Source of the DNA: Haliotis rufescens
Lineage: Eukaryota
Assembly (NCBI RefSeq): GCF_023055435.1
Contig: NW_025964334.1
Location: 48,980,001-49,044,000 of the forward strand
Direction: 5' to 3'
DNA length: 64,000 nucleotides
Of the stretch, positions 7,043 to 64,000 are shown in pieces; position 1 is the stretch's first letter; every line of letters begins with the position of its first letter. Position numbers and translations under genes: made by a program. The notes beneath the pieces were generated by a model. That model was not told the origin of the DNA, did no database searches, and was given only the letters and a program-made list of their open reading frames with translations.

Positions 7043-7577
7043 CAAGGTAAACCCTGCTTTGACACAAGGTAAACCCTGCTTTAACACAAGGTAAACCCTG
7101 CTTGATAACAAGGTAAACCCTGCTTGATAACAAGGTAAACCCTGCTTGATAACAAGGTAAACCCTGTTTGATAACAAGGTAAACCCTGTTTGAACACAAG
7201 GTAAACCCTGCTTGAACACAAGGTAAACCCTGCTTGATAACAAGGTAAACCCTGCTTGAACACAAGGTAAACCCTGCTTGATAACAAGGTAAACCCTGCT
7301 TGAACACAAGGTAAACCCTGCTTGATAACAAGGTAAACCCTGGTTGATAACAAGGTAAACCCTGGTTGATAACAAGGTATACCCTGTTTGATAACAAGGT
7401 AAACCCTGCTTGATAAGAAGGTAAACCCTGCTTGATAACAAGGTAAACCCTGCTTGAACACAAGGTAAACCCTGTTTGATAACAAGGTAAACCCTGCTTG
7501 AACACAAGGTAAACCCTGCTTGATAACAAGGTAAACCCTGCTTGAACACAAGGTAAACCCTGCTTGATAACAAGGTA
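7043..7577. repeat. Minisatellite, 22-bp unit, ~24 copies
   Basis: Unit caaggtaaaccctgcttga(ta/ac)a; explains the three overlapping repetitive ORFs at 6992-7608. Confidence 0.95.
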
Positions 7578-9467: not shown

Positions 9468-11219
9468 ATACTGCTCGAAAGAAGTTAAAGAACACCCAAA
9501 TGTTTCACATGACTATGACATTTCAACTGTCATGCCATAACACCTGATTGTTTCATATGACTATAGTTAATCTGTCATGCCATGACACCTGGTTGTTTCA
9601 TATGACTATAGTTAATCTGTCATGCCATAACACCTGATAGTTTCATATGACTATAGTTAATCTGTCATGCCATGACACCTGGTTGTTTCATATGACTATA
9701 GTTAATCTGTCATGCCATAACACCTGGTTGTTTCATATGACTATAGTTAATCTGTCATGCCATAACACCTGGTTGTTTCATATGACTATAGTTAATCTGT
9801 CATGCCATAACACCTGATTGTTTCATATGACTATAGTTAATCTGTCATGCCATGACACCTGATTGTTTCATATGACTATAGTTAATCTGTCATGCCATAA
9901 CACCTGGTTGTTTCATATGACTATAGTTAATCTGTCATGCCATAACACCTGGTTGTTTCATATGACTATAGTTAATCTGTCATGCCATAACACCTGGTTG
10001 TTTCATATGACTATAGTTAATCTGTCATGCCATAACACCTGATTGTTTCATATGACTATAGTTAATCTGTCATGCCATAACACCTGGTTGTTTCATATGA
10101 CTATAGTTAATCTGTCATGCCATAACACCTGGTTGTTTCATATGACTATAGTTAATCTGTCATGCCATAACACCTGGTTGTTTCATATGACTATAGTTAA
10201 TCTGTCATGCCATAACACCTGGTTGTTTCATATGACTATAGTTAATCTGTCATGCCATAACACCTGATTGTTTCATATGACTATAGTTAATCTGTCATGC
10301 CCAAACACTGATTGTTTCATATGACTATAGTTAATCTGTCATGCCATAACACCTGGTTGTTTCATATGACTATAGTTAATCTGTCATGCCATAACACCTG
10401 GTTGTTTCATATGACTATAGTTAATCTGTCATGCCCAAACACCTGATTGTTTCATATGACTATAGTTAATCTGTCTTGCCATAACACCTGATTGTTTCAT
10501 ATGACTATAGTTAATCTGTCATGCCCAAACACTGATTGTTTCATATGACTATAGTTAATCTGTCATGCCCAAACACTGATTGTTTCATATGACTATAGTT
10601 AATCTGTCATGCAATAACATCTGGTTGTTTCATATGACTAGAGTTAATCTGTCATGCCATAACACCTGATTGTTTCATATGACTATAGTTAATCTGTCAT
10701 GCCATAACATCTGGTTGTTTCATATGACTAGAGTTAATCTGTCATGCCATAACACTTGATTGTTTCATATGACTATAGTTAATCTGTCATGCCATAACAC
10801 CTGATTGTTTCATATGACTATAGTTAACCTGTCCTAGCCATAACACCTGAATGTGTCACATGACTATAGTTAATCTGTCATGCCATAACACTTGATTGTT
10901 TCATATGACTAGAGTTAATCTGTCATGCCATAACACTTGATTGTTTCATATGACTATAGTTAATCTGTCTTGCCATAACACCTGATTGTTTCATATGACT
11001 ATAGTTAATCTGTCCTAGCCATAACACCTGATTGTTTCATATGACTATAGTTAATCTGTCATGCCATAACACTTGATTGTTTCATATGACTATAGTTAAT
11101 CTGTCATGCCATAACACCTGATTGTTTCATATGACTATAGTTAATCTGACATGCCATAACAGATTAACTATAATCATATGAAAAAATCAGGTGTTGTTTA
11201 ACTTATTTTAAGCAGTATA
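9468..11219. mobile_element. Tc1/mariner-like palindromic MITE carrying an internal satellite
   Basis: TIRs tatactgctcgaaagaagttaaagaacacc and ggtgttgtttaacttattttaagcagtata with TA at both ends; the right arm is the reverse complement of the satellite unit. Confidence 0.85.
9501..11160. repeat. Satellite, 45-bp unit, ~37 copies
   Basis: Unit tgtttcatatgactatagttaatctgtcatgccataacacctg(a/g)t. Confidence 0.95.
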
Positions 11220-15423: not shown

Positions 15424-16440
15424 AAAACGTATGTAAGATTGACCATTATGTGGGTTCAAATAATACACAAACAAATTTTATGACTCAGATTGTCAGATGT
15501 CCCCAATAACATTAGCCTCACTTTGACTGCTATGAAAATGAAAATAGCCAAGAAATATATCCATCTTTAATAACTGACTTATAGTGTTATTGTTTCATAA
15601 ACATCAGCATAAATTTACCTACTGTTCCGAAATGCAAGATACACGCATGGATTATTTCCTAAACAATATAGTTTTAAGCTTGGCCTTTATACTTTTTAAT
15701 GAATTAATATCATTTGGAGCCATTTGTGTTTAATGGTTATGAGCGGCAATGTTTTCCAATCCCAATTCTGTAAATGTTTGTGTATTCAAACTTCCAAATT
15801 ATCACTGACAGTTTTTGACATTTCTAAAATGTTATGATAGCGTTTGATTGTAGCATGAACAATATCGGAGCGTTTTAGAATGTTGTATCACAAACAAGGG
15901 GCCATTGTTTTACGGTACAGATGATCATGGCTAAGTTTATAAACTTTCTAGACATAAACTGTGGCAGTTGATAAGGGCTTGATTCACGAAGGTCTGCACA
16001 AAGACAAGGGGATTTGAAGTTCCACTCCAGAAACAATAGCAAGCACAACCAGGTCATGTCTGTGACAGACAACATGAAAACTCAATAAGGCTCTATTGAT
16101 TACTGATCCCATAGCTTAAAGCAACACTGACAATCATTTTTCAAGAATATTGAATCATTTCCTTTTTTGGTCTTGATGTAATAAGTGACAAATTGATGTC
16201 TTAATCTTGAAAAAATACTACTGCTTGAAAAAATTCATTTGACAAAATTGGATACTTTTTGCTTTTTTTTAGATAATTGTGTGGCAGTGCCCTGAAGCCT
16301 TTGTTGAGCTTATATTCTCAGTAGGTGCAGAGCAGAGTAGTGTTATCTCCCTTACCAATTCCAGGATCAGCTGAACATTGGTTCAGATCCCAGATCACAC
16401 AATCATTGGTTTCATGAAAAACAGTGTTTATCTATCACTT

Positions 16441-16535
16441 TGGAGATTCCAGGTTAGAATAGGTCCCCAGTTACCTTTGCTTGTTGTGTGAGCAGCTAAA
16501 TGTGTCAGCTAGGCAGACTCGGTCTTGGCTGATGG
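16441..16535 (+). mobile_element. Diverged family C head
   Basis: ggagattccaggttagaataggtccccagttacctttgcttgt aligns to the family C 5' end. Confidence 0.65.
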
Positions 16536-19413: not shown

Positions 19414-20130
19414 GTCCATCTGATTCACCCTTCAGCAGCCATGTTGTCCATCTGATTCACCCTTCAGCAGCCATGTTGTCCATCTTATTCACCATTCAGC
19501 TGCCATGTTGTCCATTTGATTCACCATTCAGCTGCCATGTTGTCCATCTGATTCACCCTTCAGCAGCCATGTTGTCCATCTGATTCACCATTCAGCTGCC
19601 ATGTTGTCCATCTGATTCACCATTCGGCTGTCATGTTGTCCATCTGATTCACCATTCAGCAGCCATCTTGTCCATCTGATTCACCATTCAGCAGCCATCT
19701 TGTCCATCTGATTCACCATTCAGCTGCCATGTTGTCCAGCTGATTCACCATTCAGCTGCCATGTTGTCCATCTGATTCACCATTCAGCTGTCATGTTGTC
19801 CATCTGATTCACCATTCAGCTGCCATGTTGTCCATCTGATTCACCATTCGGCTGCCATGTTGTCCATCTGATTCACCATTCAGCTGCCATGTTGTCCATC
19901 TGATTCACCATTCAGCAGCCATGTTGTCCAGCTGATTCACCATTCAGCTGACATGTTGTCCATCTGATTCACCATTCAGCTGCCATGTTGTCCATCTGAT
20001 TCACCATTCAGCTGCCATCTTGTCCATCTGATTCACCATTCAGCAGCCATCTTGTCCATCTGATTCACCATTCAGCTGCCATGTTGTCCAGCTGATTCAC
20101 CATTCAGCTGCTAGTTGTCCATCTGATTCA
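19414..20130. repeat. Minisatellite, 32-bp unit, ~22 copies
   Basis: Unit gtccatctgattcaccattcagc(t/a)gccatgtt. Confidence 0.95.
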
Positions 20131-21106
20131 CATATTTCATTTATCACTGACATTTTTAGCATTTTTTCTGTGTATGGGATGGCAGATTCTGTAACTCTGA
20201 ATTCAGCATGGTTTGATCATAATTTTATTGAAACATTGAGCAGTGTTCAGAATAAAGGTTCCCTTGAGGTTTGGTCCCTTGTATTTGAATCTAAGGACAC
20301 CCTAAATATTTAACTTGTAAACGGAGTTGGACATGAGTACCCTTTTTGCAAACACCTGGTGTCATCACTGATTTTCAATGATCAATTCATATTATTTTCA
20401 CTGTTATGTCGCCTTTTACACTCGTCGGATGTTTCGTCAGATAATCAAGACTGGATAATCTCTGGCATTGACGTTTTATATATTGTACCATGAGGGCTAG
20501 ACATGACCCTTTTGATTTTTTTTCTTTATTTTTAACCACGTAGAGTATTATGAAAGATTAGTTTATAAGGTGTTCAGGACACAGTGTTGATGATTCAGAA
20601 ACAGAAAGTGATGATTCAGCAGTTTTTGCTTTTACTAATGACCACACAGGACAAGACACAAAGCATACAAGTAAACAAACTCATCAGTCTTAGGACTACA
20701 ACGTTTCAGATGTTGCTCTCACATATTTAAACATTTCTTCATTCAAAGGATACTTTGACGTTTGAACTTGACCAGTTCTCACAACAGTGGGAGACAAACA
20801 CCAGATTTGAACAGCGTAACGCAATATCAGGGCGAGCGACAAGGTAGATCTACTCAGTGGTACAATGTTTGTTTTGACAGCGTAGATTTGTTAAACTACA
20901 ACTCTTAACTAATCATACAATTGGTTTCCCTGCGATTCGATGAATCACGACTTCCTTGCGCATGTTGACATTTTGGGAGGGAATCATAATCTAGCTATCT
21001 ATTGTCAGGGTTTGGTGATGACAATGGTAACTTCTTGTCGGTAAACACGGCATTGTGCCTTGCACCCACTGACAACTAGCTCCTTCACAAGCTTCCCCAG
21101 TTGGGA

Positions 21107-22150
21107 GTATACACGGACATATACCAGCGGTTGTACCATAGTTTTCAGCAGTTGGAACTGTTGCCTGAATGGTTGAACGAGGTGTGAAGTTATTCCCCAT
21201 CATTTTGGAGTATACATGGACATATACCAGCGGTTATACCGTATTTCATCTGTTGGAACTGTTGCTTGAATGGTTGAACCGGGTGTGAAGTTATTCCCCA
21301 TCATTTTGGAGTATACATGGACATATACCAGCGGTTATACCGTATTTCATCTGTTGGAACTGTTGCTTGAATGGTTGAACAGGGTGTGAAGTTATTCCCC
21401 ATCATTTTGGAGTATACATGGACATATACCAGCGGTTATACCGTATTTCATCTGTTGGAACTGTTGCTTGAATGGTTGAACAGGGTGTGAAGTTATTCCC
21501 CATCATTTTGGAGTATACATGGACATATACCAGCGGTTATACCGTATTTCATCTGTTGGAACTGTTGCTTGAATGGTTGAACAGGGTGTGAAGTTATTCC
21601 CCATCATTTTGGAGTATACATGGACATATACCAGCGGTTATACCGTATTTCATCTGTTGGAACTGTTGCTTGAATGGTTGAACCGGGTGTGAAGTTATTC
21701 CCCATCATTTTGGAGTATACATGGACATATACCAGCGGTTATACCGTATTTCATCTGTTGGAACTGTTGCTTGAATGGTTGAACAGGGTGTGAAGTTATT
21801 CCCCATCATTTTGGAGTATACATGGACATATACCAGCGGTTATACCGTATTTCATCTGTTGGAACTGTTGCTTGAATGGTTGAACAGGGTGTGAAGTTAT
21901 TCCACATCATTTTGGAGTATACATGGACATATACCAGCGGTTATACCGTATCTTATCTGTTGAAACTGTTGCTTGAATGGATGAACAGGGTGTGAAGTTA
22001 TTCCCCATCATTTTGGAGTATACATGGACATATACCAGCGGTTATACCATATTTCATTTGTTGTAACTGTTGCTTGAATGGTTGAACGAGGTGTGAAGTT
22101 ATTCCCATCATTTGGTATCATACACGGACATATACCAGCGGTTATACCAA
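21107..22150. repeat. Tandem repeat, 101-bp unit, ~10 copies
   Basis: gtatacatggacatataccagcgg at 21210, 21311, 21412 and onward; internal copies nearly identical, terminal copies diverged. Confidence 0.95.
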
Positions 22151-22483
22151 ACTCTCTGACATGATGAAGGAACTGTTTCTTGAAGGGTTGAACTAGGATT
22201 CAGAGTGTGAGAGTTGGAGGAAGTACAGGATCACCTGGAAGAGGAACCCTGTGGAAGAAGTAAGGCCTTGAGACTTAAGTGATGACTTGAGTATATGAGC
22301 AATTTATACCCAGTTGGCTGTATTGTACATATTCTATTGATAGAAATGTCTGTCTGAAGTATTGTGGTGCTGTAATTAATTAAAAAGTTGGTTGGAAGTT
22401 TCACAGAGCTGTTATGAATTGAAACTGAGGGCTGTTATTAACAGAAAATAGCTGGAAATATTGTACAGCTCTAATTAATGGAA

Positions 22484-24220
22484 AGGAAGTATTTTAGAGC
22501 TGTAATTAACAGACCTGTGAGTGGAAGTATTTTAGAGCTGTAATTAACAGACCTGTGTGTGGAAGTATTTTAGAGCTGTAATTAACAGACCTGTGGGTAG
22601 AAGTATTTTAGAGCTGTAATTAACAGACCTGTGAGTGGAAGTATTTTAGAGCTGTAATTAACAGACCTGTGGGTAGAAGTATTTTAGAGCTGTAATTAAC
22701 AGACCTGTGAGTGGAAGTATTTTAGAGCTGTAATTAACAGACCTGTGTGTGGAAGTATTTTAGAGCTGTAATTAACAGTCCTTGAATTGGAAGTATTTTA
22801 GAGCTGTACTTAACAGACCTGTGAGTGGAAGTATTTTAGAGCTGTAATTAACAGTCCTTGAATTGGAAGTATTTTAGAGCTGTAATTAACAGACCTGTGA
22901 GTGGAAGTATTTTAGAGCTGTAATTAACAGTCCTTGAATTGGAAGTATTTTAGAGCTGTAATTAACAGACCTGTGAGTGGAAGTATTTTAGAGCTGTAAT
23001 TAACAGACCTGTGTGTGGAAGTATTTTAGAGCTGTAATTAACAGACCTGTGAGTGGAAGTATTTTAGAGCTGTAATTAACAGTCCTTGAATTGGAAGTAT
23101 TTTAGAGCTGTAATTAACAGACCTGTGAGTGGAAGTATTTTAGAGCTGTAATTAACAGACCTGTGAGTGGAAGTATTTTAGAGCTGTAATTAACAGACCT
23201 ATTGGTGGAAGTATTTTAGAGCTGTAATTAACAGACCTGTGAGTGGAAGTATTTTAGTGCTTTAATTAACAGACCTGTGAGTGGAAGTATTTTAGAGCTG
23301 TAATTAACAGACCTATTGGTGGAAGTATTTTAGAGCTGTAATTAACAGACCTGTGAGTGGAAGTATTTTAGAGCTGTAATTAACAGACCTATTGGTGGAA
23401 GTATTTTAGAGCTGTAATTAACAGACCTGTGGGTAGAAGTATTTTAGAGCTGTAATTAACAGACCTGTGAGTGGAAGTATTTTAGAGCTGTAATTAAAAG
23501 ACCTGTGTGTGGAAGTATTTTAGAGCTGTAATTAACAGACCTGTGAGTGGAAGTATTTTAGAGCTGTAATTAACAGACCTGTGTGTGGAAGTATTTTAGA
23601 GCTGTAATTAACAGACCTGTGAGTGGAAGTATTTTAGAGCTGTAATTAACAGACCTGTGTGTGGAAGTATTTTAGAGCTGTAATTAACAGACCTGTGAGT
23701 GGAAGTATTTTAGAGCTGTAATTAACAGACCTGTGTGTGGAAGTATTTTAGAGCTGTAATTAACAGACCTGTGAGTGGAAATATTTTAGAGCTGTAATTA
23801 ACAGACCTGTGTGTGGAAGTATTTTAGAGCTGTAATTAACAGACCTGTGTGTGGAAGTATTTTAGAGCTGTAATTAACAGACCTGTGTGTGGAAGTATTT
23901 TAGAGCTGTAATTAACAGACCTGTGAGTGGAAGTATTTTAGAGCTGTAATTAACAGACCTGTGTGTGGAAGTATTTTAGAGCTGTAATTAACTGACCTGT
24001 GAGTGGGAGTATTTTAGAGCTGTAATTAACAGACCTGTGAGTGGAAGTATTTTAGAGCTGTACTTAACAGACCTATTGGTGGAAGTATTTTAGAGCTGTA
24101 ATTAACAGACCTGTGAGTGGAAGTATTTTAGAGCTGTACTTAACAGACCTGTGAGTGGAAGTATTTTAGAGCTGTAATTAACAGACCTGTGAGTGGAAGT
24201 ATTTTAGAGCTGTAATTGAC
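22484..24220. repeat. Satellite, 38-bp unit, ~45 copies
   Basis: Unit ggaagtattttagagctgtaattaacagacctgtg(a/t)gt; degenerate copies extend back to ~22340. Confidence 0.95.
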
Positions 24221-24256
24221 ATAAATGTGGGTTGAAGAAGTTTAGAGCTCTAGGGA

Positions 24257-24467
24257 TTTGGATTGTTTGTTTGTTGTTTTATGCCGCACTCAGCAATATT
24301 CCAGCTTTATGACGGCGATCTGTAAATAATCAAGTCTGGACCAGATAATCCAGTGATTGACATCATGAGCATCGATCCACGAAATTGGGATCGCCTCTTA
24401 CGACAAGCATAGTCGCCTTTTACAGCAAGCATGGGTTGCTGAAGATCTATTCTACCCCGGATCTTCA
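24257..24467 (-). mobile_element. SINE-like family C
   Basis: 13-bp TSD agagctctaggga at 24244-24256 and 24468-24480; head tgaagatccggggtagaatagatcttc; (AAAC)n tail. Confidence 0.92.
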
Positions 24468-24894
24468 AGAGCTCTAGGGAAACAGGGATGCTTCTAAGAA
24501 CAATACCTTTCTTTAAAGGATGCTCCATGATTTTGCAAAATGACAGATGTTAACGTGTATATTAATGTAAGGGGAGTAATTATAGCGTATAGACTTAACA
24601 GCATTAATGTTGATGTCAGGAGGCTACTGTTGTTAGAATTCTTCACAAGAAAGGGTTAATTGAATTGCATTACAAGAGTTTCATTGCCTGAGGGACTGAA
24701 TGCGACCATTATGCATCTGCTGCACACTGTATTAGGTGCATTGCCAAGGGTTGTTATCTTGGTGTCAGGATTGTTTTTAGACCTGGAATATTGATGCAGA
24801 TTGTAGGAAACTTCCTCCAGGAAAACATTACAGAACTGATGGATGCATTCAGATGCATAAACACGTGATGTTTATGTGGCAGAGAAACAGTGTA

Positions 24895-29247: not shown

Positions 29248-30750
29248 CATAATATGGCCCTAAACAAGTGAAGTAGATTTGATAATATGGCCCTAAACAA
29301 GTGAAGTAGATTTGATAATATGGCCCTAAACAAGTGTAGTAGATTTGATAATATGGCCCTAAACAAGTGAAGTAGATTTGATAATATGGCCCTAAACAAG
29401 TGTGGTAGATTTGATAATATGGCCCTAAACAAGTGTGGTAGATTTGATAATATGGCCCTAAACAAGTGTAGTAGATTTGATAATATGGCCCTAAACAAGT
29501 GTAGTAGATTTGATAATATGGCCCTAAACAAGTGTAGTAGATTTGATAATATGGCCCTAAACTGGTGTAGTTGATCTGATAATACAGTCCTAAATAAGTG
29601 TGGTATAATTGATAATATGGCCCAAAACAAGTGTGGTAGATTTGATGATATCACCCTAAACAAGTGAAGGAGATTTGATGATATCACCCTAAACAAGTGT
29701 GGTAGATTTGATGATATCACCCTAAACAAGTGTGGTAGATTTGATGATATCACCCTAAACAAGTGAAGTAGATTTGATGATGTCACCCTTAACAAGCGTG
29801 GTAGATTTGATAATATTGCCCTTAACAAGTGAAGTAGATTTGATGATATCACCCTAAACAAGTGTGATGGATTTGATAATATCACCCTAAACAAGTGTGG
29901 TAGATTTGATGATATCACCCTAAATGAAAGGGTAGATTTGATAATATCACCCTAAACAAGTGTGGTAGATTTGATGATATCACCCTAAACAAGTGTGGTA
30001 GATTTGATGATATTGCACTAAACATGTGAAGTAGATTTGATGATATCACCCTAAACAAGTGTGGTAGATTTGATGATATTGCCCTAAACAAGTGTGGTAG
30101 ATTTGATGATATTGCCCTAAACAAGTGTGGTAGATTTGATAATATCACCCTAAACAAGTGTGGTAGATTTGATGATGTCACCCTAAACAAGTGAAGTAGA
30201 TTAGATGATATTGCCTAAACAAGTGTGGTAGATTTGATGATATCACCCTAAACAAGTGTGGTAGATTTGATGATATCACCCTAAACAAGTGTGGTAGATT
30301 GGATGATATCACCCTAAACAAGTGAAGTAGATTTGATGATATCACCCTAAACAAGTGTGATGGATTTGATGATATCACCCTAAACAAGTGTGGTAGATTT
30401 GATGATATCACCCTAAACAAGTGTGGTAGATTTGATGATATTGCCCTAAACAAGTGAAGTAGATTTGATGATATCACCCTAAACAAGTGTGGTAGATTTG
30501 ATGATATTGCCCTAAACAAGTGAAGTAGATTAGATGATATTGCCTAAACAAGTGTGGTAGATTTGATGATATCACCCTAAACAAGTGTGATGGATTTGAT
30601 AATATCACCCTAAACAAGTGTGGTAGATTTGATGATATCACCCTGAACAAGTGTGGTAGATTTGATAATATCACCCTAAATAAGTGTGGTAGATTTGATG
30701 ATATCACCCTAAACAAGTGTGTTAGATTTGATGATATCACCCTAAACAAA
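29248..30750. repeat. Satellite, 33-bp unit, ~45 copies
   Basis: Unit gat(g/a)atatcaccctaaacaagtgtggtagattt; source of the RVISSNLPHLF ORFs. Confidence 0.95.
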
Positions 30751-31556
30751 TGTTGCAAAGTTGTCGATACAGACCTGAGCATCACTCTTGGTTGGTATAT
30801 AAATACATTTTAAATAATTTATTTTCTCACTTCAGCTGAAGAACATGGTAAACATAGTAAAAATGATTCACGAGTGTTAAAAAAAGTGAGATTGTTTGTA
30901 CAGGTATATTGTATTCCTTCTCATCAGCGCTAGACGGATTAGAGCCGAAGTTGGTTTGAAAGAATAAAAAATCTTTCAAGATAGATAACCTTGTGAACAA
31001 TAGTTAATGGACACAGAAAGATCTCCGTCAGCAACTGCTGTACTGGTTTATGTAATGGTAGACAATTATTACAGATCAATTTCAACATCACAGAAAAAAT
31101 AAGAATTCCATGGCTCTTTTACAGCCAGTTGTTTATTGGGCTTATCAAAACGCAACAGTATCGGGTGGCATGATAAGAATATGATAATACGATTAGAAAT
31201 AGGATAGTTTCATTTACTGTGTGATAACAGAGATCCTAACGATATGGAACTGTCTGAGAGTAGTGTGACAATGGGCTCACGGTACCACTGTAGATGTAAT
31301 GCGAGACTTGCATTTACCATTCTTTCTGGTGTTATGTAAATGGAGTACAAAAAAATATAATTTGAGAAAAACAAGAAAAAAAATTTTTCCTCAAGGTTTT
31401 GCCTTGTTTTGGTTATTATAGATATACATCTCAAATCTAACAGTGGCATCTCATTGTCATTTCTATTGTAAAAAAAACAATCTTACCACTGACAGTATAT
31501 AAAAAACCTTGTCACTCTTCTTGATTTTAAAGGTTGTCTGATCCTTAAACCAAGGA

Positions 31557-35184: not shown

Positions 35185-36056
35185 ATAGATCATAGATGTA
35201 GTTGTGTTAATGGCTGTTGTTATTCATAGATCATGGGTGTAGTTGTGTTAATGGCTGTTATTCATAGATCATAGACGTTGTGTTAATGGCTGTTATTCAT
35301 AGATCATGGGTGTAGTTGTGTTAATGGCCGTTATTCATAGATCATGGGTGTAGTTGTGTTAATAGCTGTTATTCACAGATCATGGGGGTAGCTGTGTTAA
35401 TGGCTGTTGTTCATAGATCATGAGTGTAGTTGTGTTTATTGCCGTTATTGTTATTCATAGATCATGGGTGAAGTTGTGTTAATGGCTGTTGTTATTCATA
35501 GATCAAGGGTGTATTTGTGTTAATGGCAGTTATTCATAGATCATGGGTGTAGTTGTGTTAATGGCTGTTATTCATAGATCATGAGTGTAGTTGTGTTTAT
35601 TGCCGTTATTGTTATTCATAGATCATGGGTGAAGTTGTGTTAATGGCTGTTGTTATTCACAGATCATGGGTGTAGTTGTGTTAATGGCTGTTATTCATAG
35701 ATCATGGGTGTAGTTGTGTTAATGGCTGTTATTCACAGATCATGGGGGTAGCTGTGTTAATGGCTGTTGTTATTCATAGATCATGGGTGAAGTTGTGTTA
35801 ATGGCTGTTATTCATAGATCATAGACGTTGTGTTAATGGCTGTTATTGTTATTCATAGATCATGGGTGTAGTTGTGTTAATGGCCGTTATTGTTATTCAT
35901 AGATCATGGGTGAAGTTGTGTTAATGGCTGTTATTGTTATTCATAGATCATGGGTGTAGTTGTGTTAATGGCCGTTATTCATAGATCATGGGTGTAGTTG
36001 TGTTAATGGCTGTTATTCACAGATCATAGGGTTAGCTGTGTTAATGGCTGTTGTTG
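35185..36056. repeat. Minisatellite, ~36-44-bp unit
   Basis: ttcatagatcatgggtgtagttgtgttaatggctgtta with variable tt(g/a) triplets. Confidence 0.95.
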
Positions 36057-37277: not shown

Positions 37278-37504
37278 TTTGTTTGTTTGTTGTTTAACAC
37301 CGCACTCAGCAATATTTTCCCATCATATGACAGCGGTCTGTAAATAATCAATTCTGGACCAGACAATCCAGTGATTGATATTATGAACATCGACCCCGCA
37401 ATTAGGATGCGATGACATGCATCAACCAAGTCAGCAAGCCTGACCACCTAATCCCGTTAGTCGCCTCTTACAACAAGCATAGTCGCCTCTTACGACAAAC
37501 ATGG
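37278..37504 (-). mobile_element. SINE-like family C, 5'-truncated
   Basis: (TTTG)n tail, ctggaccagacaatccagtgattga, duplicated agtcgcctcttac(a/g)acaa hairpin module. Confidence 0.9.
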
Positions 37505-37813
37505 TCGTAGTTACTTGTGACATATTTGAGTTGGGTAACCTGCACAGTGTTTTCATGTTGTAACAGTTTCTTAGATAAGGATACAATGGCATTAAATGGG
37601 TTAAAATCAGTGTTCTATAGTATAGTTTGACCTGAATAGATACAAAATAAAATTAAGGTTATACCTCACCGAATGACTTGATGAAAGTAATTTTCTAGGT
37701 CAGTTGTTCATTGTGGTGTTATATATGTTGATCGTTGACAAACTTATACAGTTTTACGTGACCTACCTACAGGTAATTTTAGGTTGAATACTGGGTTCTA
37801 TGACCTCTTTTTG

Positions 37814-41595: not shown

Positions 41596-42281
41596 TCTGA
41601 AATTTGGATTAAACATTAAAACAAGGCTTCATAAATTTCCACCGAGTATTTGATTGGTGACAATATTCTACATGTCAGTGTCACGTGTGGTTTATAAGTG
41701 TTATTGCACAATGGTGTTATTTACTCACTGGGGGACTGGCCATTGTATTTGATTCCCACGTGAGTGAGATCATCCACAATGTACTGTCTGGGTGTGACAG
41801 TTCGTATTCAGTGAAATCCACACACAAGGAAGAACTCCAGTAGAAGCGATTGTTCAACTACAGCAGAGAATAGCTGTACAATTGCTGATGTGGTGTTGGG
41901 CAATAGCTCACTCACTCATTCAGTGTTCAAATAACATGTGATGTGAAGGGGCTGTCACGAATCTAAGGTTCGTGATTAAAATTTTTGTGAGTCACGATTA
42001 ATATCTCGCCCAGATTATCAAGGACCTGACACCTCTCTTAATGACAGGCACCTCTCTTAATTATGAACTCTGTCATGAATCTAATGTTCGTGATTCAAAA
42101 TTTTAGGAGTTACGATTAATACCTCACCATATAACTGGAATATTGTTTAGTACGGCGTTAAACAACAAACAAACAAACAAACTCTCTTTTAAGTGTGAAT
42201 TGTAAGACAGATCCTGATATTTTTTAGGTTTTTAGAGTATTGTATTTGATCTAACACCCCCTTGACATTCATTCTGTTTTT

Positions 42282-42522
42282 AACCTGTGAACATCTGGGT
42301 TCGAATTGGTCTTCAGCAGTCCATGCTTGTCGTAAGAGGCGACTAACGGGATCAGGTTGTCAGGCTCGCTGTCTTGGTTGATGCATGTCATCGTATCCCA
42401 ATCACGTGGATCAATGCTCATGATGTCAATCTCTGGATTGTTTGGTCCAGACTGGATTATTTTCAGACCGTTGTCTACAGCTGGAACATTGCTGAGTGCA
42501 GCCTTAAACAACAAACAAACAA
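42282..42522 (+). mobile_element. SINE-like family C, full length
   Basis: acctgtgaacatctgggttcgaattggtcttcagcagtccatgcttgtcgtaagaggcgactaacggg ... (AAAC)n; approximate TSD tcattc(t/a)gt. Confidence 0.9.
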
Positions 42523-48124: not shown

Positions 48125-49545
48125 TCCCCAGTACCCCATGCTTGTCTCCCCAAGCTGATTCAGGACGCTCCCCAGTACCCCATGCTTGTCTCCCCAAGGG
48201 GGTTCAGGACACTCCCCAGTACCCCATGCTTGTCTCCCCAAGCCGATTCAGGACGCTCCCCAGTACCCCATGCTTGTCTCCCCAAGCCGATTCAGGACGC
48301 TCCCCAGTACCCAATGCTTGTCTCCCCAAGCCGATTCAGGACGCTCCCCAGTACCCCATGCTTGTCTCCCCAAGCTGATTCAGGACGCTCCCCAGTACCC
48401 CATGCTTGTCTCCCCAAGCCGATTCAGGACGCTCCCCAGTACCCCATGCTTGTCTCCCCAAGCCGATTCAGGACGCTCCCCAGTACCCCATGCTTGTCTC
48501 CCCAAGCTGATTCAGGACGCTCCCCAGTACCCCATGCTTGTCTCCCCAAGCTGATTCAGGACGCTCCCCAGTACCCCATGCTTGTCTCCCCAAGCCGATT
48601 CAGGACGCTCCCCAGTACCCCATGCTTGTCTCCCCAAGCCGATTCAGGACGCTCCCCAGTACCCCATGCTTGTCTCCCCAAGCCGATTCAGGACACTCCC
48701 CAGTACCCCATGCTTGTCTCCCCAAGGGAATTCAGGACACTCCCCAGTACCCCATGCTTGTCTCCCCAAAGGGAATTCAGGACGCTCCCCAGTACCCCAT
48801 GCTTGTCTCCCCAAAGGGAATTCAGGACGCTCCCCAGTACCCCATGCTTGTCTCCCCAAAGGGAATTCAGGACGCTCCCCAGTACCCCATGCTTGTCTCC
48901 CCAAAGGGAATTCAGGACGCTCCCCAGTACGCCATGCTTGTCTCCCCAAAGGGAATTCAGGACGCTCCCCAGTACCCCATGCTTGTCTCCCCAAAGGAAA
49001 TTCAGGACGCTTCCCCAGTACCCCATGCTTGTCTCCCCAAAGGGAATTCAGGACGCTCCCCAGTACGCCATGCTTGTCTCCCCAAAGGGAATTCAGGACG
49101 CTCCCCAGTACGCCATGCTTGTCTCCCCAAGGGGACACAGCACACGAAGTCCTCAGTACGCCATGCTTGTCTCCCCAAAGGGATTCAGGACACTCCCCAG
49201 TACCCCTTGCTTGTCTCCCCAAGGGGATTCAGGACACTCCCCAGTACGCCATGCTTGTCTCCCCAAAGGGATTCAGGACGCTCCCCAGTACCCCATGCTT
49301 GTGTCCATAGTACGCCATGCTTGTCTCCCCAGTACCCCATGCTTGTCTCCCCAAGGGGACTTTAGTCAAAGTACCAGTACCCCATGCTTGTCTCCATAGT
49401 ACGCCATGCTTGTCTCCCCAGTACCCCATGCTTGTCTCCCCAAGGGGACTTGAGTCAAAGTCTTCAGTACCCTATGCTTGTCTCCCCAAGGGGACTTGAG
49501 TCAAAGTACCAGTACCCTATGCTTGTCTCCCCAGTGCCCCATACT
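48125..49545 (+). repeat. GC-rich satellite, 44-45-bp unit, ~30 copies, resembling the family C head
   Basis: Unit ccccagtaccccatgcttgtctccccaa(gccg/aggga)attcaggacgct; source of the 442-aa and overlapping ORFs. Confidence 0.95.
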
Positions 49546-49947
49546 TGTGTGGCCAAGAGGACTCAAGGCAGACAAATACTGTCAACCTCCCCTATATATA
49601 CACAGGAAGACAGAGTTCCATGTGAAGGTTGAAATGTCTCTATCCCTGCTCCAATCTCATGTTCATTATGTCTAGATGTGGTTAGGGAGTTTAATGCTTG
49701 AATGTAATAACATATTTTCCCCCCACAAGATCAAGGGTTGCATCCAACTTAATTACTCTTTAATTAGTCATTAAGACCATGGGTAACATGAAACAATAGT
49801 ACTGACGTGAACTGACATTGATGAAGGGTGTGCACAGCAGCTTCAAGTGCAGCATGGCATATGGTGGACTTTGGGGACAGACTATTTACTTTCAACACTT
49901 GGCATCACTTACTGACAGGTGTTAGGCAGTCCTTAATAGTATTAATA

Positions 49948-53692: not shown

Positions 53693-54420
53693 CTAGACTC
53701 CTGCCAGTGCAAATACCTCACAAACCAGTACTGTAACATCAGAAACAATACTTACCAGAGCTGATATCTGAGCTGATAGAATGTATGATGAAAAGACAAA
53801 AAATACAAAGAACAAAATTAACAGTCGAAAAAACAAGTGAAGACCAAATAAACCCTGATAATGCAGATTTAAATCCAATATCTGACTAACCAAATTCCTG
53901 ATAATGCTTAATTTGTAAATTTTCTACTTAATAAGAAATTATCAGTAAACAGAACAAAAACCCTGCAAAAACGTGTTTTTATGTCTCAGTGTCTGTTTCC
54001 AAGGCTTCAGCGTCGACACAATCCTGGGTGTAACATGTGAGTCACACTCTGAAATATGGCTTTCATTAATCAACTTATTAAGTAATGAGGAAACTGAAAG
54101 ATGCTTACGAAGAGATATCTATAGGGTATTCAGAACAAAGTGAAAATGTCAGGGAAAAAGATGTCAATCCAGTGATGATGGTGATGATGATGATGATAAT
54201 AATCCATTTATTTGGCACTGTACTCCCTGCATTAAGCATGCTCTGTGCGCTTAGACATTATTATCATTCTCAGCTCCCTGGGGAGTATACCACCCGAACA
54301 AAGTCGCTTGCTCGAGGAGACACCACATATGTTACATGTGCTTCATGATAGATCTGGCGTTGAGAGCAACTTAAATCAGTCTCTGATTTTAGCCACTAGT
54401 CCAAAAACCTGAGTCTGGTG

Positions 54421-54680
54421 GGTGAAGATCCGGGTTCCAATTGGTCTTCGGCTAGTCGTAAGAGGCGACTAACAGGATTGGGTGGTCAGGCTCACTGACC
54501 TGTTTGATGCATCATATCCCAATTGCGTGGATTGATGCTCATGATGTCAATCACTGGATTCCCTGCTCCAGACTCCATTATTGGTAGACACCGTCAAAAA
54601 GTGTGGCGTAAAATAACAAACAAATCTCACTCACTCACTCACTCACTCACTCACTCACTCACTCACTCACTCACTCACTC
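54421..54680 (+). mobile_element. SINE-like family C plus (ACTC)n
   Basis: gtgaagatccgggttccaattggtcttc..gtcgtaagaggcgactaac..gtggcgtaaaataacaaac. Confidence 0.88.
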
Positions 54681-54714
54681 TTCCAGCAATAATTCCCACT
54701 GACAACATCAAGAA

Positions 54715-54963
54715 TGTACCCGTGAAGATTCCGGGGTAGAGTAGGTCTTCAGCAACCCATGCTTGCCGTAAAAGGTGACTATGTTTGTCTGGATCGGGTG
54801 GTCAGGCTCGCTGACTTGGTTGATGCATGTCATCGATCCCAATTGTGTGGATCGATGCTCATGATATTAACCACTAGATTGTCTGGTCCAGACTTGATTA
54901 TTTACAGACCGCCGTCATATAGCTGGAATATTGCTGAGTGCGGCAATAACAACAAACAAACAA
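54715..54963 (+). mobile_element. SINE-like family C, full length
   Basis: acccgtgaagattccggggtagagtaggtcttcagcaacccatgcttg ... (AAAC)n; TSD aa(c/t)atcaagaa. Confidence 0.92.
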
Positions 54964-55488
54964 AATATCAAGAACAGGTTTCACACATTGTTTGTTTGTT
55001 GTTTAACGTTGCATTCAATAATATTCCTGCTATATGACAGCGGTCTCTAAGTACTGGGCTATTCAAGCCCCTCCTTAATCCTTAATTATCTATTAAGTAG
55101 TTGTCTTACAGTGGTTATTAATTGGGTACTCTGTTCCCTAGATGCAATGTTTTCATGGTTGAAAGGACGATTCCGTGGTCTGTACTTGACAATATCGTGA
55201 ATGTTTACGCTGCACGAGCATTCTATCGGCTGTGCGTCGTGATCTCAACTACAGATAGGTATCACTCTCTTCCTAATGATTGAATCAGGATTGAGGCAAA
55301 TTGTGGATGATCTATAGGGCTGAGTTTGTGTTACGATGCGATTTCAGCTGACTTTTGCTCTTACTGCGTGAGTCAGGTATGACTTGTCTCCCTTGGCTGA
55401 CTAAAGGTGAAATTGTGTTTTAATGATTGTGTTTTCGACCATTATTAATACTATGTCTATGATACGAGAGCAGAATAGGTTACCACTC

Positions 55489-56830
55489 ACTGTGGGGGTT
55501 CTGGGCAGATAAGGTTCCCTGTATCTGAATCTGGTCTTCCTGTGGGGATTCTGGGCAGATAAGGTTCCCTGTATCCTAATCTGGTCTCCCTGTGGGGATT
55601 CTGTGGCAGAAAAGGTTCCCTGTATCCTAATCTGGTCTCCCTGTGGGGATTCTGTGGCAGATAAGGTGCCCTGTATCCTGAGCTGGTTTCCCTGTGGGGA
55701 TTCTGGAGCAGATAAGGTTCCCTGTGTCCTAATCTGGTCTCCCTGTGGGGATTCTGGGCAGATAAGGTTCCCTGTATCCTGAGCTGGTTTCCCTGTGGGG
55801 ATTCTGTGGCAGATAAGGTTCCCTGTATCCTAATTTGGTCTCCCTCTGGGGATTCTGGGCAGATAAGGTTCCCTGTATCCTAAGCTGGTCTCCCTGTGGG
55901 GATTCTGGGCAAATAAAGTTCCCTGTATCCTGAGCTGGTTTCCCTGTGGGGATTCTGGAGCAGATAAGATTCCCTGTATCCTGAGCTGGTCTCCCTGTGG
56001 GGATTCTGGGCAAATAAAGTTCCCTGTATCCTGAGCTGATCTCCCTGTGGGGATTCTGGGCAGATAAGGTTCCCTGTATCCTGAGCTGGTCTCCCTGTGG
56101 GGATTCTGGGCAGATAAGGTTCCCTGTATCCTAATCTGGTTTCCCTGTGGGGATTCTGTGGCAGATAAGGTTCTCTGAATCCTAATCTGGTCTTCCTGTG
56201 GGGATTCTGTGGCAGATAAGGTTCCCTGTATCCTAATCTGGTCTCCCTGTGGGGATTCTGTGGCAGTTAAGGTTTTCTGAATCCTAATCTGGTCTCCCTG
56301 TGGGGATTCTGGAGCAGATAAGGTTCCGTGTATCCTAAGCTGGTTTCCCTATGGGGATTCAGGGGCAGATAGGGTCCCCTGTATCCTGAGCTGGTCTCCC
56401 TGTGGGGATTCTGGGCAGATAAGGTTCCCTGAATCCTAATCTGGTCTCCCTGTGGGGATTCTGGAGCAGATAAGGTTCCGTGTATCCTAAGCTGGTTTCC
56501 CTGTGGGGATTCAGGGGCAGATAGGGTCCCCTGTATTCTGAGCTGGTTTCCCTGTGGGATTCTGGGGCAGATAAGGCCTCCTGTGGCCACCCCATTGGCA
56601 TTCCGAGTTAGAAAAGGTCTCCAACAATGTGTGGTGGTCTCCCCATGGGGATTCCAGTTTAGAAAAGGTCTCCAGCTACGAATGCTGGTCTCCCTGTGGA
56701 GATTCTGCTTAAGAACAGGTCCCTTGCAACCTATGCTGGTCTCCTGTCAAGGATTCCAGGCTAGAACAGGCCCCTAGCAACCTCGCTTGTGATAGGAACA
56801 GACAAAATGAAAGGGTGGTCAGGTTCTTGA
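55489..56830 (+). repeat. Satellite, 50-52-bp unit, ~25 copies, derived from the family C head
   Basis: Unit ccctgtggggattctgggcagataaggttccctgtatcct(aat/gag)ctggtct; the last copies run into gggtggtcagg of the element body. Confidence 0.95.
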
Positions 56831-61986: not shown

Positions 61987-62900
61987 TAATCTGGACCAGA
62001 CAATTCAGTGATTGATATCATGAGTAGATATCCATGCAGTCTGGTGTGATATATGCATTTGAAGTCCCTGACCAACTGGTCCATTTGGTCGCCTCTGACG
62101 ACCAGCCTAGGTTTCTGGGGATCTATTCTTATCTAAAATCACTGCTAGGATTATGAGAACATCTCCTGATTCATTTGGTCGCCTTTTACAACCAGCCTAG
62201 GTTTCTTTGGATCTATTCTTACCTAAAATCACTGCTAGGATTGTGAGAGCATCTCCTGATTCATTTGGTCGCCTTTTACAACCAGCACAGGTTTCTTGGG
62301 ATCTATTCTAACCTAAAATCACTTCTAGGATTATGAGAGCTGGATCTATTCTGCTGGAGTTGTTCCCAGTGAGAACCCAGGCACTGTTGTAACAGGATCC
62401 TGTAGCCCAGTGAGTGAGTTGGGGTTAATGCCGCTTTTAACAGTAAAAAAACTAAAATCACTGCTAGGATTGTGAGAGCATCTCCTGATCCATTTGGTTG
62501 CCTTTAACGACCAGCACTGGTTTCTGGGGATCTATTCTAATCTTAAATCACTGCTAGGATTGTTAGAGCATCTCCAGATCCATTTGGTTGCCTTTAACGA
62601 CCAGCACAGGTTTCTGGGGATCTATTCTAACCTTAAATCACTGCTAGGATTGTGAGAGCATCTCCAGATCCATTTGGTTGCCTTTAACGACCAGCACTGG
62701 TTTCTGGGGATCTATTCTAACCTAAAATCACTGCTAGGATTGTGAGAGCATCTCCTGATCCATTTGGTTGCCTTTTACGACCAGCACAGGTTTCTGGGGA
62801 TCTATTCTAACCTAAAATCACGACTAGGACTGTGAGAGCATCTCCAGATCCATTTGGTTGCCTTTTACGACCAGCCTAGGTTGTTGGGGATCTATTCTGC
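61987..62900 (-). repeat. Family C body followed upstream by 90-bp tandem head copies (3 + 5)
   Basis: catttggt(c/t)gcc at 62082, 62172, 62262 and at 62491, 62581, 62671, 62761, 62851; body at 61987-62080. Confidence 0.92.
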
Positions 62901-63205
62901 TGGAATTGTTCCCAGGGAGAACCCAAGCACTGTTGAAACAGGATCCTGTACCCCAGTATTGGTCGGGCCCAAAACAGGGAAACCAGTGACTGATAGTGTG
63001 AGCATTGAACCACTCCACGGTGAAGGGTTGAGATATTGCTGATGCAGTGGTCTGTTTTAACTTGCTCATTCTGTTCAACAGATACCCTTGTTTGTGTGTT
63101 TAACAGGTCACAAATAAAGTCAGATGTTATAAATTTAACATGATGTATCAGTCTTTCAACAATTTCCATTATGAGAAAGTTTCCAAAATATCATTTTATA
63201 TTTTA

Positions 63206-63999
63206 TATATGCCTGAAAAAAAGGTTAAGGGTCACCCGGTTCTTTCATATTACTATGGTAAATCTGTCATGGACCACCCAATAATTTTCATATTACTATG
63301 GTTAATCTGTCATGGACCACCCAATAATTTTCATATTACTATGGTTAATCTGTCATGGACCACCCAATGATTTTCCTATTACTATAGTAAATCCGTCATG
63401 GACCACCCAATAATTTTCATATTACTATGGTTAATCTGTCATGGACCAACCAATGATTTTCATATTACTATGGTTAATCTGTCATGGACCACCCAATGAT
63501 TTTCCTATTACTATAGTAAATCTGTCATGGACCACCCAATAATTTTCATATTACTATGGTTAATCTGTCATGGACCACCCAATAATTTTCATATTACTAT
63601 GGTTTATCTGTCATGGACCACCCAATGATTTTCATATTACTATGGTTAATCTGTCATGGATCACCCAATAATTTTCATATTACTATGGTTAATCTGTCAT
63701 GGACCACCCAATAATTTTCATATTACTATGGTTAATCTGTCATGGACCACCCAATAATTTTCATATTTTATTCATGGTTAATCTGTCATGGCATTTACAA
63801 GTCAAAGAAATTTAGGGACCTCATTATTCTTTCATATTACTATAGTTAATTTGTCATGACAGATTAACTATAGTAATATGAAGGACCTTCTTTCATGGAA
63901 TAATTCTTCATATTAGTATAGTTAATGTTTCATGGCACGACAGATAAACTATAGTAATATGAAAAAGTCGGATGGTCCTTAACTTTTTTGAGTAGCATA
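63206..63999. mobile_element. Tc1-like palindromic MITE with an internal 43-bp satellite (~12 copies)
   Basis: Left end tatatgcctgaaaaaaaggttaagggtcacc, right end ggatggtccttaacttttttgagtagcata; unit ttttcatattactatggttaatctgtcatggaccacccaat(a/g)a. Confidence 0.85.
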
Positions 64000-64000
64000 T

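Follow-up and report, generated by a model that had tools for sequence, protein, structure and literature searches.

A predicted double-pseudoknot RNA at the 5' end of an abalone LP-type SINE, shared with LINEs and viruses, is a candidate exonuclease-resistant element

Haliotis is reported to carry 255-bp LP ('LINE promoter') SINEs, Hdi_LP and Hmi_LP, and the LINEs Nimb-17_LMi, I-3_DR, and RTE-9_CPB have 5' ends that match the SINE head of about 70 bp (Matetovici, 2016; PMC4758252). A promoter function was proposed for this head, with Pr77 as an analogy, and the expression of the LP-SINEs was left open; the SINE family, the head sequence, and the promoter idea have already been published. Ribozyme-bearing LINE clades are listed in the available portion of PMC5786205 as R1, R2, R4, RTE, and Ingi as well as LOA, a list from which I/Nimb is absent. 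Exonuclease-resistant RNAs (xrRNAs) were characterised only in viruses according to the consulted sections of a 2021 review, which describe cellular ones as not yet found (PMC8374639).

The window analysed here is a stretch of 64,000 nucleotides from the genome of Haliotis rufescens. As the initial annotation had recognised, it contains a SINE-like family with a characteristic head: a repeat of about 230–255 nt was retrieved by blastn and a covariance model, with about 10 copies that are dispersed and two arrays in tandem (Table 1). The covariance model of the head gave 18 matches at E<=0.1, the best at 42282-42358, 54717-54794, and 24397-24473, and two of these three had already been part of its training alignment. 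In the 1.33-Gb genome the SINE 18-mer has 23,648 exact matches (reversed control 0) and a 31-nt head pattern has 9,461. This SINE is very likely the abalone LP-SINE, as judged from a comparison with scallop rows. Like the described family, it has a non-tRNA, LINE-derived head, a length of about 255 bp, variable target site duplications (TSDs), and a short tandem tail. In the supplementary figures of that article, as far as available, the scallop 'Nimb-17 homology' rows (Fig. S2) contain the same 17-mer at the same spacing with, by eye, compensated stems, and Pan_3 (Fig. S7) has the same 17-mer and, again by eye, the same helices; the hexamer before the tail is given as AATATA for Haliotis, whereas the copies here read AATATT (PMC4758252).

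In the copy at 54715, hereafter the focal copy, the last part of the head including the 3' pseudoknot strand is gone, and one third hairpin remains in degenerate form; a duplicated third hairpin marks the commonest subfamily (26/30 loci). TSDs had been claimed for three copies, and those of 8 bp (focal copy) and 13 bp (24257-24467) were recovered, but 42282-42522 is flanked only by degraded repeats of 6–10 bp. Isolated SINE 3' tails, which represent 5'-truncated insertions, lie beside the focal copy (54988-55053, minus strand) and at 42128-42176 (plus strand). The former constitutes an inverted repeat with the tail of the focal copy, which explains weak microRNA-like Rfam matches in this region. 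The head recurrently seeds minisatellites of 44–90 nt, mostly from its 5' pseudoknot half, both in the window (55486-56744 and 62073-62920) and elsewhere (L239, L253, L255, and L378-L395). Unrelated minisatellite arrays occupy 7043-7577, 9491-11161, 19414-20131, 21098-22197, 22428-24252, 29249-30769, 35185-36056, 48125-49563, and 63233-64000, the 45-nt array at 9.5–11.2 kb being related to that at 63.2–64.0 kb.

Table 1. Copies of the SINE, derived repeats, and predicted parts of the focal head, in window coordinates.
Feature	Position	Strand	Basis or remark
Focal copy of the LP-type SINE (decayed; subfamily with duplicated hairpin)	54715..54966	+	TSD 54707-54714 / 54967-54974 (8 bp)
Copy of single-hairpin subfamily; most complete head of the window (42282-42358)	42282..42522	+	Covariance model
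Copy with 13-bp TSD; leader absent, internal deletion	24257..24467	-	
Adjacent decayed SINE copy	54417..54625	+	blastn, covariance model
Head of older subfamily (GGRGA/TCCCC arms)	16435..16511	+	Covariance model
Tandem array, ~90-nt units, older-subfamily heads	62073..62920	-	blastn, covariance model
~51-nt minisatellite from 5' half of older head	55486..56744	+	blastn, covariance model
Copy with multiplied third hairpin, without 5' half	37279..37550	-	blastn, covariance model
3' tail like 3' end of Nimb/I-like LINEs, then (CAAA)n	54905..54966	+	18/21 nt, weak E 0.5; likeness over ~40 nt judged by eye
Leader CCCG, 5' strand of Pa; the single-U linker comes next (54723)	54719..54722	+	Covariation
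Pb 5' strand, 7-bp main stem	54724..54730	+	Double changes in 7/7 pairs; 94% paired
Pa 3' strand, CGGG at start of loop 1, closing the 5' H-type pseudoknot	54732..54735	+	92% paired; double changes in 2/4 pairs; p 5e-5 in fixed register
Conserved AGAAUW linker, mutated to AGAGTA in focal copy	54738..54743	+	MAFFT alignment
Pb 3' strand	54744..54750	+	MAFFT alignment
Pc hairpin; loop ACCCA = 5' strand of second pseudoknot Pd	54751..54763	+	Covariation
Degenerate copy of near-invariant hairpin Pe and CNAA linker	54766..54782	+	Second Pe and Pd 3' strand deleted in focal copy

The first ~75 bases of the SINE head are predicted to form a double-pseudoknot RNA with an almost invariant hairpin. Its elements follow each other in the order leader (Pa), U, Pb, Pa', AGAAUW, Pb', Pc, loop (Pd), Pc', UG, hairpin Pe, CNAA, 0–3 nt, and Pd'. 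Support for this fold is comparative, the folding of single copies being no better than that of shuffles (z -1.1, -0.9, +0.3). In a MAFFT alignment of 15 natural sequences, which was not fitted to the structure, Pa is paired in 92%, Pb in 94%, Pc in 93%, and Pe in 98%. Both sides change in 12/18 pairs, and covariation amounts to 0.67 versus 0.21 in shuffled and at most 0.14 in slid alignments, values that have to be read in view of a small set, of anchors used for selection, and of region borders set after the by-eye model. Conservation of the AGAAUW linker within the set is also partly due to selection, because it served as a search anchor. Pd shifts in register, was tested by permutation only, and is weak or absent in L041, L050, and L053. 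Label permutation yielded z 3.84 for leader:loop1 and z 3.76 for loop2:3' strand with 24/27 family representatives, and z 3.74 and 3.81, respectively, with 17/21 representatives after removal of related families; the 3 and 4 representatives left out had a weak Pb stem. For Pb itself the permutation on the 21 representatives is inflated, since its 5' strands had been picked by best match, and the MAFFT test is the fair one. Pb also covaries between SINE subfamilies of the H. rufescens genome, and among LINE subfamilies an A-U pair has changed to C-G (24 versus 6 copies, none mixed). Covariation is found in non-CpG and CpG-independent contexts, RNA viruses included. No Rfam family matched the motif in the window head or at 14 other loci, where only microRNA-like noise on inverted repeats was returned. 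Hammerhead (minus strand), twister, and pistol ribozymes, compared by eye through their consensus features, did not fit.

Parts of this structure had been drawn before. The three hairpins of the initial annotation hold, and so does the replacement of GAAGA/TCTTC by GGGGA/TCCCC (among the 100 TCCCC heads listed, many of them tandem units, 75 carry GGGGA and 9 GAAGA). In contrast, the CCC and GGG tracts had been wrongly paired: the proposed outer helix CCCGT/ACGGG is paired in 45% of cells (z -0.36/-0.44), and the supposed kiss between loops 1 and 2 is paired in 67%, with no double changes (z 0.69/0.73). The general view of the head as non-tRNA, selected, pseudoknotted, and tied to the formation of the 5' end can be retained apart from that pairing.

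The 5' end of the SINE was surveyed in 90 loci that had been chosen because their head is intact and that include 84 non-tandem copies. The common start point noted earlier for the window copies extends to the whole genome, where these 84 copies reveal a sharp 5' end. The copy ending at 24467 lacks the leader. The two positions before CCCG are G in 64/84 and A in 71/84, and further upstream the composition is that of the background. Among 60 tail-bearing copies 32 have a TSD of 9–19 bp, of which 17 end exactly at the G and 27 within 1 nt of it (null 3/400); offsets scatter from -2 to +6. The tail is (CAAA)n, and the length up to its start has modes at 227 and 249 nt. In four SINE-like families, three of which are related, conservation stops exactly 7 nt before Pb on a purine (G or A). 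Three runs of small RNA contained 7, 116, and 12 reads against one SINE copy, mostly an antisense species of ~31 nt from the body; a single such RNA (L263:1671-1701, minus strand) dominates, with 63/116 reads in X20 beginning at 1701, and suggests piRNA-like silencing. There was no small-RNA pile-up at the SINE 5' end in these three runs, and such reads are uninformative on 5' chemistry.

The earlier statement that an A box is lacking was confirmed: a loose pattern occurs in only 3/84 non-tandem copies, no more than expected by chance, and ARAGORN found a tRNA in 0/4 SINE loci. The A and B boxes and the tRNA-like head that define tRNA-derived SINEs are thus not found in this one. The ggttcgaat formerly likened to a B box is a one-base variant of the copy at 42282, and the family reads GGGKTAGAAT (9,461 exact 31-mers). 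Likewise, an HDV-type loop upstream of the head was detected in 0/84 non-tandem copies.

The suggestion to look for the head in LINE 5' UTRs was rewarding. LINEs of 6.1–6.2 kb in H. rufescens share it with the SINE (78% over 50 nt, E 8e-5). Their ORF1, which begins about 700 nt downstream, is CCHC gag-like (by eye; no Pfam match), and ORF2 encodes endonuclease, RT, and RNase H, so that the elements appear I/Nimb-like by domain content. At least 521 intact heads belong to this group. As the LINE tail resembles that of the SINE, these LINEs or a relative likely mobilise it. LINE positions 1-58 are predicted to be an HDV-like ribozyme, and the motif follows without a spacer. All HDV helices can be drawn by eye in the order P1-P2-P3/L3-P1'-P1.1-P4-J4/2-P2', with L3 YCCYCG and the catalytic C in J4/2; three HDV-type Rfam models match L212:1424-1480, all below the gathering score (best E 0.0036). 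TSDs abut G1 in 6/8 full-length copies, one of the others being confounded by a tandem repeat and one nested, and the HDV P1 motif lies upstream in 447/521 LINE heads. This predicted ribozyme is minimal, with almost no P4, and lies at the exact 5' end at L268:985-1042 (+), at L212:1424-1481, and in 29/30 of L336-L365. Over their first ~400 nt the LINE subfamilies L268-L275 are nearly identical, against only 75–94% overall; L157 and a LINE associated with bivalves (L206) also resemble them behind the motif, and together these likenesses suggest further conserved RNA elements. The first 1.5 kb of L274 holds two LINE 5' ends ~560 nt apart, the first inside a different GC-rich retroelement-like ORF.

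It had been considered that the head might be a self-cleaving ribozyme; in its present form this explanation would assume a new ribozyme whose cut lies 7 nt before Pb. The invariant core and a sharp 5' end that falls on a purine are compatible with it, and the 3' half, which consists of a helix, UG, a hairpin, CNAA, and the strand of a pseudoknot, looks by eye like an HDV fold without P3. Ribozymes, including tandem ones, moreover occur in UTRs of toti- and tombus-like viruses, as stated in the accessible part of PMC13725137. However, a separate HDV-like ribozyme would make the LINE 5' end: 29/30 LINE copies start at its G1, one starts inside it, and 0/30 start at the motif, which argues against self-cutting by the motif. 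A cut there would remove the upstream ribozyme, yet it is kept in these 29 copies. We regard a new ribozyme as improbable, also in view of the viral and prokaryotic data.

In scans of viral sequences, which gave many chance matches, eight distinct contigs carried the complete motif; pattern matches without the fold (15/22, 23/27, and 16/24, <=25 bits) were dropped. On six short RNA-virus contigs the motif starts about 5, 9, 9, 22, 72, and 99 nt after the last long ORF or stop codon and ends 27–119 nt from the contig end. Five of the six are viral by Pfam, with tombus-like and toti-like RdRP and noda-like, tetra-like, and S-domain capsids, and L053 by its near-identity to L040. L037 carries a second, tandem copy cut by the contig end. 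The motif lies between two ORFs on a DNA-virus contig of 212 kb (L041), and L417, a contig absent from the model, scored 45 bits, the motif again being at the contig end. For a ribozyme these positions are difficult to reconcile, as a cut would sever the viral 3' ends from the genome and the base at -7 is mixed (T, T, A, C, C, A).

Since RNA viruses lack a DNA stage, the motif must act as RNA. This, together with the covariation, is why a promoter alone fails to account for it. The LP hypothesis in its strictest form, a DNA-level internal promoter with incidental pairings (Matetovici, 2016), draws on the purine start and on the 5'-terminal position in SINEs and, according to the available text, in three Repbase LINEs (PMC4758252), but faces the compensatory changes, the viral copies, and LINE copies that do not start at the motif. 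As the sole function it is strongly disfavoured and in our judgment very improbable.

The metagenome scan gave at least 122 matches; among those listed, most are heads of eukaryote-like repeats of several families, and two families retain only the 3' half. The latter (L130, L164, and related loci) have only AGAAUW and the 3' pseudoknot, behind unrelated microsatellite-like DNA, and show a compensated Pd, CCAGG:CCTGG instead of CCTGG:CCAGG. Prokaryote genomes (596 Gb) contained just seven matches, all in eukaryote-like or contig-end context, and by inference these represent eukaryotic contamination. Three of them, from bins of free-living bacteria, each occur once, in a low-GC or simple-repeat stretch that lies at a contig end or close to it; L202, L205, and L207 are eukaryote-like short repeats at contig ends of prokaryote bins and probably assembly contamination. 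Unlike most small ribozymes, the motif has no true prokaryote or phage cases in these genome scans, and it has no Rfam ribozyme match.

We favour, tentatively and at close to an even chance, the reading of the head as a 5'-3' exonuclease-resistant RNA of a new class, which likely blocks Xrn1/Xrn2 and so would set and protect the SINE 5' end. This barrier is preferred because one activity would cover the SINE 5' end, the LINE behind its ribozyme, and the start of the viral 3' UTR. Promoterless SINE copies would be read through from host transcripts or introns; an exonuclease would degrade this RNA up to the knot and halt about 7 nt before Pb; and the released RNA of ~230–255 nt might be reverse transcribed by a Nimb/I-like LINE recognising the tail common to both. 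A block of this kind in viruses could leave a short 3' non-coding RNA, and in the LINE the motif may be a second barrier behind the ribozyme. The broader version, in which LINEs and SINEs across animal phyla have one xrRNA class in common with RNA viruses and with a large DNA virus, and in which the host's own Xrn carves a promoterless, ribozyme-less SINE from host transcripts, is possible but falls below an even chance. By analogy, position, tandem copies, and pseudoknot match traits given for xrRNAs in the accessible sections of PMC8374639.

Several observations speak against a barrier. The purine at +1 is likewise compatible with a start of transcription or with a cap that was copied, and 0/30 LINE copies start at the motif, so that elements in which the structure is still under selection show no trimming to it. 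The 5' strand of Pa pairs into a loop 1 of 12–17 nt closed by Pb, where the xrRNA ring measures 15–16 nt. In the commonest subfamily the third hairpin is duplicated, two metagenome families have the 3' half only, and the TSD offsets scatter. A near-invariant hairpin of 17 nt is unusual for xrRNAs, coremin excepted; its character is similar to that of the 17-nt core in the translation enhancer BTE. Alternatively, the motif may be a 3'-CITE-like element for cap-independent translation or recruitment of a host factor, and an internal promoter residing in that DNA would set the SINE 5' end, comparable to the dual use of Pr77. Such an element would translate uncapped virus RNA and ribozyme-cleaved LINE RNA and take SINE RNA to ribosomes like the Alu domain. 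The motif sits directly behind an HDV-like ribozyme that would leave an uncapped end and in 3' UTRs of tombus-like and toti-like viruses, its loop sequence is nearly invariant, the +1 base is a purine, and the fold is under selection in the LINE although no copies start there; viral ribozyme-linked cap-independent translation is described in the available text of PMC13725137. On the other hand, the fixed SINE 5' end requires a second function, the distance to LINE ORF1 is about 700 nt, non-coding SINEs retain the whole fold, and there is no A/B box. We consider a translation element unlikely, though more probable than a ribozyme.

Whatever its function, it is unexpected that the head of a mollusc SINE and the 3' UTRs of RNA viruses have, almost letter for letter, a common fold that is absent from Rfam 15. 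If the barrier interpretation is true, the motif would be an xrRNA encoded on chromosomes and, beside promoters and ribozymes, would offer a third route to a retroelement 5' end. It would also be a module swapped between viruses and retroelements by which a SINE has reached tens of thousands of copies, and a compact nuclease barrier useful for stabilising laboratory template RNAs. The 75-nt motif, of which SINEs, LINEs, and viruses provide natural variants, opens the expression of LP-SINEs as well as the question of cellular xrRNAs to testing.

Compared with viral xrRNAs (flavivirus classes 1/2, xrRNA-LT, coremin), which in the accessible text are likewise compact pseudoknots at the start of the viral 3' UTR with tandem copies and a 5' strand in a loop (PMC8374639, PMC10520033), the motif differs in sequence and topology and lacks an Rfam match. 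None of the known classes was recognised in it, that is, no class 1/2 three-way junction, no xrRNA-LT fold, and no coremin 20-mer. Unlike the xrRNAs covered in the consulted part of the review, it is present in SINEs and LINEs, and its resistance is predicted (PMC8374639). The HDV-like 5' ribozymes of LINEs and Pr77 do the same job at the 5' end, but the SINE head lacks the P1/P3/P1.1 order, has no P1 strand after the small hairpin, and matches no HDV model in Rfam. The 3' cap-independent translation enhancers of the BTE/PTE type also occur in tombus-like 3' UTRs and have a short invariant core, with a different sequence and fold. Enhancers of this type are not known from retroelement 5' ends. 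A literature search, limited mainly to freely accessible text so that an earlier description is possible, returned no paper with the head 15-mer and no account of the fold, its viral copies, or a LINE with HDV-like ribozyme plus motif. The LP-SINE article proposes a promoter and, in its accessible parts, does not mention RNA structure, viruses, or a partner LINE (PMC4758252); the present analysis adds to it the predicted double pseudoknot, its copies in viruses, and a LINE in which an HDV-like ribozyme precedes it.
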